The notes beneath the pieces are model-generated. The model was not told the DNA's origin, did not search any database, and was given only the letters and a program-made list of their open reading frames with translations. A program made the translations under genes and the position numbers. 32,000 bases of DNA from Paenibacillus nasutitermitis (GTDB taxonomy: Bacteria; Bacillota; Bacilli; Paenibacillales; Paenibacillaceae), in the NCBI RefSeq assembly GCF_014641075.1, contig NZ_BMHP01000001.1, positions 1,820,171 to 1,852,170 on the forward strand, given 5' to 3'. Below are positions 14,245-21,497 of this stretch, piece after piece. Numbering within the stretch: the stretch's first letter is position 1; each line of letters opens with the position of its first letter.

Positions 14245-14910
14245 ATGGGCGTACGAATTCTGCTTGTCGAGGATGACGAGCATATATGTAATACCGTCAA
14301 AACCTTTTTAAGAGAAGCCGGATATAAAGTAGACGCCTGCCTAGATGGTAGCGAAGCGCATAAAAACTTTTATGATAATGTTTACCAACTTGTCATTCTC
14401 GACATCATGCTGCCTGGTATAAGCGGTCACGAGCTTTTACGGGAGTTCCGCAAGATTAACAATACCCCTATTCTGATGATGACCGCGCTTTCCGATGATG
14501 AGAATCAAATCAAGGCGTTTGACGCGGAAGCGGATGATTATGTGACAAAGCCGTTCAAGATTCAGCTTCTGTTGAAACGTGTGGAAGCCCTGCTCCGGCG
14601 AAGCGGCGCGTTGGCAAAGGAAGTCTGCTGCGGCAAGCTGACGCTTTTGCCGGAAGATTTCAAGGTGGTTTATGAAAACAGGGAGTTGCCCTTGACAATC
14701 AAAGAATTTGAAATCCTTATGCTATTGGTTCAGAACAGGGGTAGGATGGTATCTCATGAAATTATCTTATCCCGCATATGGGGCTATGACTTTGATGGTG
14801 ATGGCAGCACAGTGCATACCCACATCAAAAACCTGCGAGCGAAATTACCGGATAATATTATCAAGACTGTTCGTGGCATAGGTTACCGAGTGGAGGAAGA
14901 AATGACATGA
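14245..14910 (+). CDS. vanR: OmpR-family response regulator VanR (VanR-B-like)
   Basis: Receiver domain (LVILDIMLPG, ADDYVTKPF) and winged helix (TVHTHIKNLRAKL...RGIGYR). Long stretches match my recollection of VanR-B (ILLVEDD.HICNTV, TPILMMTALSDDENQI.AFDAEADDYVTKPFK, LLKRVEALLRRSGALAKE). Confidence 0.9.
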   Translation: MGVRILLVEDDEHICNTVKTFLREAGYKVDACLDGSEAHKNFYDNVYQLVILDIMLPGISGHELLREFRKINNTPILMMTALSDDENQIKAFDAEADDYVTKPFKIQLLLKRVEALLRRSGALAKEVCCGKLTLLPEDFKVVYENRELPLTIKEFEILMLLVQNRGRMVSHEIILSRIWGYDFDGDGSTVHTHIKNLRAKLPDNIIKTVRGIGYRVEEEMT

Positions 14911-16247
14911 AAAATAGAGGAATCTTTTTCAAGGTATTCATTTATACAATAATTTTCTCGATACTGTTGGTTGGCGTGACGGCAGCCCTGCTATCTACAC
15001 AGATTATCTCCTATTTCTCACGTGTTCGATTGCAGGAAATCACCAGCACCTATCAGAGTATCGTTATCCAGTCGAAAGGTGAAAATGACATCACAGAAGT
15101 GGCGAGGCAGTTCTACGAAAAGAACCAGTCCTTGCAATTCTACATCAAGGACATGGAAGGACACATTGTTTACGCAACACCCGAAGCTGAAACATCCGGC
15201 ATCGAAAGCGGCGCACCACCTTACAGTAGCACAATAATGTTGCGTATGGATAATGATTATTTACTTTATGTGCTAAAAAGTGACCTTATCGCGATGGACT
15301 ACGATAAGTGGATTGTGCAAGCCCTCGTAGTGTTGTCCGCCATGCTTGCTGTCTGCGTCATAAGCACGTTTGTCTTTGCAAGGCAGATAACAAGACCAAT
15401 CAAAACTCTGGCGGATGCTACGAATAAGATGGCTAATCTCGAAGCAGTCCCACCACTGCCGGAGCGCAGTGATGAACTTGGTGCATTAGCCCGAGATGTT
15501 CATTCTATGTACAGCAAGTTGAAAGAAACCATATCCAAATTAGAGGACGAAATTCTGCGGGAGCGTGAATTGGAGGAAACACAGCGATATTTCTTCTCGG
15601 CGGCTTCCCATGAACTCAAAACGCCTATCGCAGCCACAAGCGTCTTGTTGGAGGGAATGCTTGAAAATGTAGGCGATTACAAAGACCACCCCAAATACCT
15701 GCGCGAATGCGTGAAGATGATGGACGCGCAGAGCAAAATTATTTCTGAAATACTGGAAATTGTTAATCTGAACAAAGGGAAAATCGTACCCGTTCCTGAA
15801 AGGCTGGACATAAGACATATAGTTGCTGACATACTTCCTGACTTTCAGATATTGGCTGAGGCAAACGGTCAGCGTATTGTTACGGACATTCCTGACGGAG
15901 AGGCCTGCCTTGCCGACCATAAAATGCTCCAAAAGGCGCTTTCCAACATCATTTTGAATGCGGTGCAGAACACGCCCAATGGCGGTGAGATTCGGATATG
16001 GAGTGAACCTGTGGCAAATCAATACCGCCTTTGCATACTAAACACAGGGGCAAGGATTGACGATGCCGTGTTGCCGAAGCTGTTTGACCCATTCTACCGT
16101 GTAGATAAGGTGCGGAGCCGGAAAGACAGGCGAAGCGGCTTGGGACTGACTATTGTGAGGAAAATGCTGGAGTCAATAAATGTTGATTTCGCTTTCGAAA
16201 ACGCCCCTGACGGCGTTCTGTTTTGGATGAACTTGCCGAAGGCGTAA
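14907..16247 (+). CDS. vanS: Sensor histidine kinase VanS
   Basis: ATGA overlap with vanR. Two TM segments flank a ~110-aa extracytoplasmic loop. H-box SHELKTPI, N-box ILNAVQNTP, G-box RSGLGLTIV. At 446 aa it is the same size class as VanS-B. Confidence 0.85.
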   Translation: MKNRGIFFKVFIYTIIFSILLVGVTAALLSTQIISYFSRVRLQEITSTYQSIVIQSKGENDITEVARQFYEKNQSLQFYIKDMEGHIVYATPEAETSGIESGAPPYSSTIMLRMDNDYLLYVLKSDLIAMDYDKWIVQALVVLSAMLAVCVISTFVFARQITRPIKTLADATNKMANLEAVPPLPERSDELGALARDVHSMYSKLKETISKLEDEILRERELEETQRYFFSAASHELKTPIAATSVLLEGMLENVGDYKDHPKYLRECVKMMDAQSKIISEILEIVNLNKGKIVPVPERLDIRHIVADILPDFQILAEANGQRIVTDIPDGEACLADHKMLQKALSNIILNAVQNTPNGGEIRIWSEPVANQYRLCILNTGARIDDAVLPKLFDPFYRVDKVRSRKDRRSGLGLTIVRKMLESINVDFAFENAPDGVLFWMNLPKA

Positions 16248-16272
16248 AAGCGACTATACGAGGAGATAAATA

Positions 16273-19859: not shown

Positions 19860-20883
19860 AGTAAAAGTTGCAATCCTGTTTGGCGGTTGTTCGGAGGAGC
19901 ATGATGTGTCGGTCAAATCCGCAATGGAGATCGCCGCTAACCTGGACACCGAAAAATACGAGCCGTTATACATCGGCATTACGAAATTCGGTGTTTGGAA
20001 AATGTGCGAAAAACCTGGCCCGGAATGGGAAAACGGCAATGGCTGTTCAGCCGTGCTCTCTCCGGATAAAAAAACGCACGGATTGCTTGTTCTAAAAAAC
20101 AATTCATATGAAATCCACCATGTTGATGTCGCATTTCCGGTTTTGCACGGCAAGTCGGGTGAAGATGGAGCGATACAAGGTCTGTTTGAATTGTCCGGTA
20201 TCCCCTATGTGGGCTGCGATATTCAAAGCTCCGCGATTTGTATGGACAAGTCGCTGGCCTACATCATGGCGAAAAACGCCGGCATCGCGACTCCCGAATT
20301 TTGGGTTATCCATGAAGACGACAGGGCAGCAACAGATGCGTTTACCTATCCTGTTTTTGTTAAGCCGGCGCGTTCAGGTTCATCCTTTGGCGTGACAAAA
20401 GTGGGTGGTGCGGACGAATTGGAGGCCGCGATTGAAGCGGCCAGTCAATATGATAGCAAAATCTTAATCGAGCAGGCTGTTGTCGGCTGTGAGGTCGGTT
20501 GTGCCGTGATGGGCAACCGTTCCGAGTTGATTGCCGGCGAGGTGGACCAAATTAGGCTAACGCACGGTCTCTTTCGCATTCATCAGGAGGCCGAGCCGGA
20601 AAAAGGCTCCGAAAACGCGGTTATAACCGTTCCCGCACACCTTTCGGCAGAGGAGCGAGGACGGATACGGGAGTTTGCAAAACAAATCTATAAGGCGCTC
20701 GGCTGTAGAGGTCTTTCCCGCATTGATATTTTTTTACAAGATAACGGCCGCATCGTGCTTAACGAAGTCAATACGTTGCCCGGGTTCACGTCATACAGCC
20801 GTTATCCCCGGATGATGGCAGCTGCAGGCATAACGCTTCCCGAACTGATTGACCGCCTGATCGTACTCGCGTTAAAGGGGTGA
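19852..20883 (+). CDS. D-alanine--D-lactate ligase (VanA/VanB/VanF clade)
   Basis: 8-nt overlap with vanH. Blocks [107 protein letters not shown]. The His in FRIHQE corresponds to VanA His244, associated with D-Lac specificity. Confidence 0.92.
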   Translation: [343 protein letters not shown]

Positions 20884-20888
20884 TAAGC

Positions 20889-21497
20889 ATGGAAAAGGGA
20901 TTTGTATTTGTAGATGAAATATTGCACGGTGTTCGCTGGGACGCCAAATATGCGACATGGGACAATTTCACGGGAAAACCAGTAGACGGATATGAGGTCA
21001 ATCGCATAGTGGGAACACTTGCCTTAGCCCTTGCGCTGTTGGAGGCGCAGAAGCAAGCGGAGGCTCTTGGGTACGGTTTGCTGTTATTGGACGGGTATCG
21101 GCCCAAACGTGCGGTAGATTGCTTCCTGCATTGGTCCGAACAACCGGAAGACAACCTCACAAAAGAAAGATACTATCCGAATATCGAGCGAACCGAGATG
21201 TTTGCAAAGGGATATATAGCGTCACAATCAAGTCATAGTCGCGGAAGTGCTATTGATCTTACGCTTTACCACTTAGATACGGGTGAGCTTGTTTCCATGG
21301 GAGGAAGCTTCGATTTTATGGATGAGCGTTCACACCATGGGGCAAAAGGGATTGCAAGCATGGAAGCGCAAAATCGCAGACTTTTGCGTTCCATCATGGA
21401 AAACAGTGGGTTCGAACCATATAGCTTCGAATGGTGGCACTATGTATTAAGAGACGAACCATACCCCAATAGCTATTTTGATTTCCCTGTTTTATAG
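20889..21497 (+). CDS. vanX: D-Ala-D-Ala dipeptidase VanX
   Basis: RBS AAGGGG. HGVRWDAKYATWDNFTGKPVDGYEVNRIVGT, Zn-site region SSHSRGSAIDLT and EWWHY. Confidence 0.92.
   Translation: MEKGFVFVDEILHGVRWDAKYATWDNFTGKPVDGYEVNRIVGTLALALALLEAQKQAEALGYGLLLLDGYRPKRAVDCFLHWSEQPEDNLTKERYYPNIERTEMFAKGYIASQSSHSRGSAIDLTLYHLDTGELVSMGGSFDFMDERSHHGAKGIASMEAQNRRLLRSIMENSGFEPYSFEWWHYVLRDEPYPNSYFDFPVL

Follow-up and report, generated by a model that had tools for sequence, protein, structure and literature searches.

In Enterococcus and Tn1549, the vanB operon carries, in order, vanR-B, vanS-B, vanY-B, vanW, vanH-B, vanB and vanX-B. P_RB and P_YB have been described as the vanB promoters that VanR-B activates (PMC10044008). 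vanA-like operons of Paenibacillus and Brevibacillus go back to Guardabassi et al. (2005), as cited in the survey of Andreo-Vidal et al. (2022; Genes 13:1960, PMC9689679). This survey lists a vanRSZYWHAX arrangement for Paenibacillus nasutitermitis CGMCC 1.15178 (its Fig. 3u), and the same arrangement for P. apiarius MW-14, Brevibacillus halotolerans J5TS2, Alkalihalobacillus sp. EGI L200015 and B. laterosporus SAM19. Kardos et al. (2024; PMC11273654) reported that core and regulatory genes have different origins, found VanR-B-type regulators in P. sonchi and P. jilunlii together with ligases basal to vanA, and placed vanW of P. mendelii and P. nasutitermitis at the stem of vanW-B. Here we analyze a stretch of 32,000 nucleotides (nt), called the window below, on contig NZ_BMHP01000001.1 of the soil/termite bacterium P. 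nasutitermitis; interval 14245-21497 of the window carries a van cluster. This is the locus of the 2022 survey: in its supplement, the VanH and ligase sequences are identical and the genes IEY46_RS07825-07860 have the same order, while the regulator type and the promoter cassette of the locus are not given in the passages retrieved.

Our results indicate that the interval most probably holds an intact chromosomal cluster for glycopeptide resistance based on D-alanyl-D-lactate (D-Ala-D-Lac), in which a VanB-type cassette is combined with an enzyme core of the VanA clade, the combination being old and not a recent vanA x vanB chimera. Relative to the clinical reference operons, the mixed affiliation is real. 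The B-type cassette would consist of a helix-turn-helix (HTH) gene, the promoter P_R, vanR, vanS, a terminator and the promoter P_Y. The vanW-vanH-ligase-vanX block probably derives from the Paenibacillaceae clade that also contains enterococcal vanA, and the cluster also carries a VanY-D-type carboxypeptidase and a distinct vanZ. Such cassettes seem to have been exchanged among Firmicute van clusters at gene boundaries, and the present combination appears old and vertically stable in this lineage.

A first-pass annotation of the window had proposed a mosaic in which VanB-type regulators, VanW and VanH are joined to a ligase and a VanX closer to VanA or VanF. Assembly from modules of different ancestry holds in so far as the genes are not of one van type, but the boundary had been misplaced, as VanH sits with the ligase and vanW travels with vanHAX. 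A recent joining of vanB and vanA modules does not fit the identities to both references, which are only 60-83%.

Gene content and affiliation of the cluster

The borders of the interval are exact, vanR starting at 14245 and the vanX stop lying at 21497, and they enclose eight intact, co-oriented open reading frames (ORFs). These genes and the elements of the cassette are as follows.

14009-14191, plus strand: HTH_17 / excisionase-like DNA-binding ORF, 60 amino acids (aa), directly 5' of vanR
14194-14224, plus strand: P_R, putative promoter with CTACAG boxes and a candidate -10
14245-14910, plus strand: vanR, B-type response regulator, 221 aa
14907-16247, plus strand: vanS, B-type sensor histidine kinase, 446 aa
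16273-16806, plus strand: vanZ-like membrane protein, 177 aa, 25 nt past vanS and upstream of the terminator
16833-16864, plus strand: intrinsic-terminator-like hairpin and T-run at the end of the vanR-vanS-vanZ unit
16876-16932, plus strand: P_Y, putative promoter with (C/A)TACAG boxes and a candidate -10
16988-18025, plus strand: DD-carboxypeptidase of the serine S11, penicillin-binding-protein type, VanY-D-like, 345 aa, lipoprotein signal predicted
18064-18891, plus strand: vanW, 275 aa
18888-19859, plus strand: vanH, D-lactate dehydrogenase, 323 aa, 4-nt overlap with vanW
19852-20883, plus strand: D-alanine-(R)-lactate ligase, 343 aa
20880-21497, plus strand: vanX, D-Ala-D-Ala dipeptidase, 205 aa

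Pairwise identities were calculated against a Tn1546 copy (pLW043) and an E. faecium vanB plasmid, and the cut-offs cited are NCBIfam curated family or type-specific bit scores of hidden Markov models (HMMs). The gene-by-gene comparison with A and B references that the first-pass annotation had suggested gives VanR and VanS as B-like, and VanH and the ligase as A-like.

VanR is 79.9% identical in aa to VanR-B and 36.7% to VanR-A, and scores 417 bits with the VanR-B model (type cut-off 480) against 114 bits with VanR-A, which agrees with the earlier view of a B-type and clearly not A-type protein. The same is true of VanS, with 60.2% identity to VanS-B versus 24.2% to VanS-A and 600 bits for VanS-B (type cut-off 920). 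Because these matches are by far the best, yet fall below the cut-offs of 480 and 920, both proteins probably belong to the same family as VanR-B and VanS-B without being the clinical type itself. Closer relatives of VanS are present in Paenibacillus, with identities of 68-73% in named species, up to 88% in metagenome proteins and 96% in P. mendelii. The HTH ORF (Pfam HTH_17, E 4e-6) is 50% identical (E 1e-19) to the DNA-binding protein located 5' of vanR-B in a Tn1549-like element; a matching 60-aa HTH ORF precedes vanR in the related locus L018, and the region is kept in P. mendelii (L003).

The enzyme core affiliates with VanA. VanH had been taken for VanH-B-like, but its identity to VanH-A, 80.7%, exceeds that to VanH-B, 70.6% (83.6% versus 72.5% in nt), and vanH, ligase and vanX align to Tn1546 as a single blastn piece at 83.4%. 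The ligase is 83.1% identical in aa and 85.0% in nt to VanA, versus 73.4% and 74.2% to VanB, and the four ligase motifs quoted earlier as VanA-like are all present, with 0-1 residue differences from VanA and 3-11 from VanB. Family-level HMM cut-offs are passed by the ligase (D_ala_D_lac, NF000206, 654.5 bits, cut-off 550), VanH (vanH_gen, NF000492, 591.4 bits, cut-off 540), VanX (generic model NF033115, 368.8 bits, cut-off 320) and VanW. VanH scores 649 bits with the VanH-A group (cut-off 700), and the ligase stays below the type cut-offs of VanA (NF012217, 690.9 bits of 775), VanM (630 of 760), VanB (NF012216, 616.8 of 750), VanF (600 of 750) and VanD (581 of 700). This ranking, from VanA (691) through VanM, VanB (617) and VanF down to VanD, speaks against the proposed affinity to VanF, to which the ligase is about 73% identical. 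The ligase matches a P. nasutitermitis protein at 100% identity and the P. mendelii ligase at 98%, and it carries the motif FRIHQE at residues 241-246, whose histidine we take to be equivalent to VanA His244. Taken together, the cluster lacks a vanH-B/vanB/vanX-B core, its own core grouping with the Paenibacillaceae/Tn1546 clade with 100% bootstrap versus vanB; vanH, ligase and vanX fall in the VanA clade, and the VanR-A/VanS-A pair and P_H cassette of a vanA-type operon are not there.

VanX, which keeps the motifs SSHSRGSAID and EWWH, had been read as A-like; at 79.7% identity to VanX-A and 78.7% to VanX-B it does not discriminate, and it is 94% identical to VanX of P. lautus. In the 5' half of the gene (window 20877-21150), Tn1546 and Brevibacillus sp. 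VP (L002, L014) are only 73-78% identical in nt to the window, versus 82-97% for the other compared Paenibacillaceae vanX genes. Because of this difference, the vanX of the Tn1546 lineage seems to have a history separate from that of its vanH and ligase.

Between vanS and vanW, where vanB has the M15 carboxypeptidase VanY-B, the cluster carries a Peptidase_S11 protein (Pfam, E 3e-41) with no VanY/M15 match in the Pfam/NCBIfam search. It has the motifs STAK (SxxK), SGN (SxN) and KTG and a LAAC lipobox, scores 408 bits with VanY-D (NF000471, cut-off 625), is 61-66% identical to proteins named VanY-D, and counts Sporobacter termitidis (77%) and P. thiaminolyticus (75%) among its closest named relatives. 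This VanY-D-type enzyme probably represents a third affiliation within the cluster, overlooked in the first-pass annotation. The PMC9689679 supplement labels the same gene, IEY46_RS07840, as 'VanY M15', and the domain match argues for correcting this label to S11. The vanZ-like protein (Pfam VanZ, E 5e-23) is 34% identical to VanZ-A and 76% identical to the vanZ found at the same position in L018 and L024.

VanW was correctly recognized before. It is 75.3% identical to VanW-B, scores 443.8 bits with the generic model (NF033128, cut-off 365), and has no counterpart in the vanA operon. It is also 87% identical to vanW of P. lautus, a locus with A-type regulators. Because the A-type cassette of P. 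lautus joins vanW, with homology to the window from 18070 onward, vanW can occur without B-type regulators, and what is exchanged would be the regulator-plus-promoter cassette. P. sonchi (L019) has no vanW but keeps, 5' of vanH, about 50 nt homologous to the vanW 3' end (L019 11137-11186; window 18838-18887), a relic of a vanW deletion.

The contrasts in G+C content that had been put forward between the modules come from single 60-nt lines and are noise. Whole-gene values are 45.3% for vanR, 46.1% for vanS, 46.4% for the carboxypeptidase, 46.9% for vanW, 47.4% for vanH, 50.7% for the ligase and 46.4% for vanX. Spot counts cannot separate modules because 60-nt lines inside one gene span 20-30 points (standard deviation about 0.06), and the flanking permease, counted at about 68%, has 55% as a whole gene. 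The AT-rich vanZ-like gene (36.7%) and the GC-rich GntR gene downstream of vanX (58.6%, G+C at third codon positions (GC3) 0.77) were rightly noted, and they are the only outliers beside the 45-51% of the other seven genes. A uniform affiliation with one van type together with a flat G+C profile had been named as the outcome that would contradict a mosaic; the affiliation is not uniform, and G+C and GC3 (0.43-0.56) show no step between the regulatory and enzymatic halves. Composition therefore speaks neither for nor against a mosaic. Outliers also occur in the flanks, namely an AAA-like ORF at 8479-9375 (41% G+C, GC3 0.39) and an APH-family phosphotransferase gene at 30246-31271 (40.5%, GC3 0.39), whose neighbors have about 50-55% G+C.

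Promoter cassettes and predicted expression

Promoter cassettes of the vanB type, P_RB and P_YB, are present, with CTACAG repeats and flanking sequence kept in common with vanB. In P_R, two CTACAG boxes (14194-14210) stand 11 nt apart and are followed by a possible -10, TATGCT, assigned by eye; the layout is the same as in the vanB region 5' of vanR-B, the sequence is near-identical, and the boxes form the repeat family D1. P_Y has four (C/A)TACAG boxes spaced exactly 11 nt apart, followed by a possible -10, AATAAT, likewise assigned by eye. The P_Y block is nearly invariant among the window, P. mendelii, vanB of Enterococcus, Angelakisella, L018, L020 and L024, and its identity to vanB is 82.9% over 105 nt, compared with 72-74% in coding regions. 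The pattern CTACAG-N5-CTACAG matches four times in the window versus 0.06 expected, and among the fetched loci the CTACAG motif is found in 9/9 B-regulated and 0 A-regulated ones. The boxes are assigned by conservation and not from a cited footprint, because our literature look-ups for a published VanR-B footprint sequence gave only the naming of P_RB and P_YB as VanR-B-dependent promoters. The terminator folds at -15.4 kcal/mol (z -4.7) and is kept in all aligned B-regulated loci, vanB included. No TTAGGAAA boxes of a P_H cassette were found in the window. In the metagenomic relative L024, the CTACAG cassette occurs twice (8434-8461 and 9305-9321), 5' of an M15 vanY and 5' of the next gene, and it looks as if the vanY insertion had brought or duplicated the cassette.

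From this arrangement we infer that a B-type promoter, controlled by a B-type two-component system, drives transcription of the VanA-clade enzyme core in this cluster. By homology to the vanB and vanA systems, the VanS-B-type kinase would sense vancomycin and phosphorylate the VanR-B-type regulator, which would bind the CTACAG direct repeats, two 5' of vanR and four 5' of the carboxypeptidase gene. P_R would then drive vanR-vanS-vanZ, stopping at the hairpin terminator, and P_Y would drive carboxypeptidase-vanW-vanH-ligase-vanX and possibly the GntR gene too. VanH would reduce pyruvate to D-lactate, the ligase would make D-Ala-D-Lac, VanX would destroy D-Ala-D-Ala, and the S11 lipoprotein carboxypeptidase would trim the leftover precursors ending in D-Ala.

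Related loci and history of the combination

The related loci combine regulators and core in different ways, with R, S, Z, Y, W, H and X standing for the van genes.

P. mendelii (L003): same eight-gene layout as the window
L018: HTH-R-S-Z-W-H-ligase-X, B-type regulators
P. sonchi (L019): R-S-Z-H-ligase-X, B-type
L020: R-S-W-H-ligase-X, B-type
L024: begins R-S-Z-Y(M15), B-type
Brevibacillus sp. VP, P. alkalitolerans, P. macerans, Cohnella zeiphila, Paenibacillus sp. cl123, L022, L023: A-type vanRS followed directly by vanHAX
P. lautus (L021): A-type vanRS and vanW-vanH-ligase-vanX

In the A-regulated loci, VanR is 88-94% identical to VanR-A and VanS 78-87% to VanS-A. P. lautus has no vanS gene called, but tblastn finds a VanS-A-like stretch, and the vanS-vanW spacer, directly 5' of vanW, matches the P_H region of Tn1546 (TTCTTAGGAAAT boxes). 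To the window, P. lautus is homologous from 6 nt inside vanW onward, with 89% identity for VanH and 85% for the ligase beside the values for VanW and VanX given above.

A neighbor-joining tree of concatenated VanH, ligase and VanX from 15 loci (300 bootstraps) separates all Paenibacillaceae cores and Tn1546 from the vanB group with 100% support, and within that clade the regulator types are interleaved. P. lautus (A-type) and P. sonchi (B-type), with their opposite regulator cassettes, form a sister pair supported at 100%, Brevibacillus sp. VP is sister to Tn1546 at 100%, and the window pairs with P. mendelii at 100%, the placement of the pair having only 50-66%. Since sister cores carry opposite cassettes, the comparison shows that regulator-promoter cassettes were exchanged in Paenibacillaceae, at least once elsewhere in the clade. 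When only B-regulated loci are considered, the tree of VanR and VanS and that of VanH, ligase and VanX have the same shape: P. sonchi is the first to group with the window and P. mendelii (100% and 71%), followed by L018 and L020 and, further out, by the vanB group (100%). As the two trees agree, B-type regulators were paired with this core before these Paenibacillus lineages diverged.

Recombination is visible within the core as well. In a sliding-window comparison of nt identity, the 5' part of vanH and vanX of the window are closest to P. lautus and P. sonchi (91-97%), and for the segment ~19717-20897, which is little more than the ligase gene, the closest sequences are those of A-regulated, GntR-bearing loci; max-chi-square triplet tests back this split (permutation p <= 0.002-0.004) without indicating which lineage changed. 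Identity between the window and P. mendelii is also uneven, at 93.7% in vanR and 93.4% in vanX versus 98.4-98.7% in vanZ, vanW and the ligase gene (chi-square p 3e-14), with synonymous divergence (dS) of 0.16, 0.22 and 0.02-0.04, respectively, and VanX of the window is nearer to P. lautus than to P. mendelii (92% aa). The pattern suggests recent, gene-sized allele replacement at the ends of the cluster. On the strength of the ligase split, the triplet tests and this unevenness, gene-sized recombination among Paenibacillus van clusters looks frequent.

The cluster lies within a larger segment common to both species, and three further features complete the region.

13803-22398, strand not applicable: segment shared with P. 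mendelii, 8.6 kb, 96-97% nt identity (blastn against L003)
21622-22311, plus strand: GntR/FCD (FadR-subfamily) regulator, Pfam GntR and FCD, within the shared segment
11796-13800: gene debris at the left edge (IS110 fragment, truncated YeiH-like gene, LysR fragment)

Homology to P. mendelii stops sharply at both 13803 and 22398, and the flanks are unrelated on either side. We found no terminal or flanking direct or inverted repeats at the segment edges and no integrase, transposase or recombinase gene inside the segment, so that no mobility mechanism can be named for it. To its left lie an IS110 transposase fragment on the minus strand (11796-12380; NCBIfam match to model positions 180-341 of 343 only), a truncated YeiH-like gene (12882-13535; partial Pfam match) and an internal LysR fragment from 13486 to about 13800, whose match ends where the homology to P. 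mendelii starts. In P. mendelii itself, an insert of about 2.3 kb (L003 11647-13984) separates vanX from the GntR gene. It contains a MurG-like glycosyltransferase gene (GT28, 355 aa) and repeats the 3' 440 nt of vanX; this extra copy is 94.6% identical to the window vanX versus 92.8% to the vanX of P. mendelii.

A GntR/FCD gene lies directly 3' of vanX on the same strand in 8/13 Paenibacillaceae van loci, with either regulator type (window, L003, L004, L015 as a pseudogene, L016, L017, L022 and L023). Its product is 76-92% identical in L003, L004, L016 and L017; in L022 and L023 it was placed by gene call, Pfam and nt homology. The gene overlaps vanX in L022 and follows it after 17 nt in L004, and the genes beyond it differ in every locus. 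The spacer alignment between vanX and GntR is mostly uninformative, as the lengths differ, with GAATTATCGATnAATTC just 5' of the GntR start common to three loci. The best similarities of the protein, all sub-threshold, are to NanR, LldR and PdhR, which are sensors of sialic acid, lactate and pyruvate, respectively. By sensing pyruvate or lactate, it could provide a second level of control and link the supply of D-lactate to resistance expression, although we think it quite unlikely that this regulator is a working part of Paenibacillaceae van operons. The term 'GntR' does not appear in the main text of the 2022 survey.

Several readings of this history can be set against each other. A recent cross, in or near this genome, between a vanB-type operon contributing regulators and vanW and a vanA- or vanF-type operon contributing ligase and vanX is largely refuted already and has next to no chance of being correct. 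The best match does vary by gene among B, A and D types, the sequence just upstream contains an IS110 fragment and broken genes, and two species have the 8.6-kb segment within unrelated flanks. However, no high-identity tract to either clinical reference breaks the range of 60-83%, the proposed modules are alike in G+C and GC3, the combination recurs in P. mendelii and, varied, in L018, L019, L020 and L024, regulator and core trees are congruent among B-regulated loci, the boundary is wrong given an A-like VanH, and VanF is no close relative. A little more credit, though still very little, can be given to a silent or decayed relic without inducible resistance at present. The literature searched holds no phenotype for the P. 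nasutitermitis strain, neighboring genes are degraded, and relatives show decay in the form of the GntR pseudogene of L015 and the vanS not called in L021. Against this, the eight ORFs are intact, promoter and terminator elements are kept, and the ratio of nonsynonymous to synonymous divergence (dN/dS) relative to P. mendelii is 0.16-0.40 for seven genes, which are under purifying selection; that of vanZ (0.73) comes from only seven differences. The cluster looks functional, to judge from the catalytic motifs kept in the ligase, VanX and the carboxypeptidase.

Unlikely, yet the most credible of these alternatives, is that no mosaic exists here, the locus descending vertically from an RS(B)-Y-W-H-ligase-X ancestor shared with vanB, and the vanA lineage having swapped in A-type regulators. 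The gene order is that of vanB, all shared genes are 60-80% identical to it, the regulator and core trees of B-regulated loci agree, rooting on vanB makes B-regulated loci basal or paraphyletic within the Paenibacillaceae/VanA clade, and P. lautus, with an A-type cassette joined to vanW-HAX, resembles an intermediate. That root is assumed, however, and the published ligase tree is [[vanA:vanM][vanB:vanD]vanF] (PMC11273654). Since vanD, vanM and vanF carry no B-type regulators, a B-type ancestry is not the most parsimonious; NCBIfam puts VanR-D and VanS-D/F with the A type and has a separate non-B model for VanR-F/M. The affinity of the ligase segment to A-regulated GntR loci, with 5' vanH and vanX nearest P. 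lautus and P. sonchi, also disagrees with simple descent, as does the GntR gene, which is common to A-regulated loci and, among the other B-regulated loci with the region 3' of vanX available, was found only in P. mendelii. The origin of the carboxypeptidase and of vanZ clearly differs from that in vanB.

The old combination of a B-type cassette with a VanA-clade core is the reading we prefer, and some points weigh against it. The VanR-B, VanS-B, VanY-D and VanW-B matches miss the type-specific HMM cut-offs, and VanD, VanM and VanF were compared through NCBIfam HMM and type-model scores and not through full operon alignments; a tblastn search of plasmids with the ligase gave only vanA, vanB and vanG records among the matches listed, and no vanM or vanD reference operon was obtained. 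The trees are neighbor-joining trees on 15 loci with an assumed vanB root and internal nodes of 50-71% around the window clade, and for these reasons either this lineage or the vanA lineage, by uptake of A-type vanRS, may be the recombinant one. Induction, the promoter assignment and binding of VanR to the CTACAG boxes are inferred from homology.

Comparison with described operons

With the vanB operon the cluster shares the gene order, B-type regulators (80% and 60%), the P_R and P_Y CTACAG cassettes, the terminator, the 4-nt overlap of vanW and vanH, and a homologous upstream HTH gene. It differs in that the products of its vanH, ligase and vanX genes belong to another clade, with identities of just 71%, 73% and 79%, that its vanY is of the S11 and not the M15 type, that a vanZ-like gene follows vanS and a GntR gene follows vanX, and that it is chromosomal, with no conjugative transposon genes in the window. 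With the vanA operon of Tn1546 it shares the clade of vanH, ligase and vanX (81%, 83% and 80% aa identity). The ligases of the A-regulated Paenibacillaceae loci fetched are closer still (85-88%; 84% in Paenibacillus sp. cl123), and several of these loci share the GntR neighbor. In contrast to vanA, the regulators are of another family (37% and 24%), a P_H cassette is lacking, vanW is present, and vanY and vanZ lie upstream and are of different types. The vanD operon has in common with it the S11 carboxypeptidase family with SxxK, SxN and KTG motifs and the 61-66% identity to VanY-D proteins, but the carboxypeptidase reaches 408 of 625 bits, the ligase 581 of 700 bits, and the regulators are not D-type.

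Both the locus and the concept of separate origins have been published already, and the cluster is an ordinary one and no new chimera. It illustrates in one locus the published view of soil Paenibacillaceae as a pool of van modules, comprising regulator-promoter cassettes, accessory genes and the vanH-ligase-vanX core, that feeds clinical operons, and typing by best match to clinical VanA or VanB misdescribes such environmental clusters. With a VanA-clade ligase under a VanB-type sensor, a response to vancomycin and not to teicoplanin would be expected by analogy with vanB; if true, regulator type rather than ligase type would predict the phenotype.

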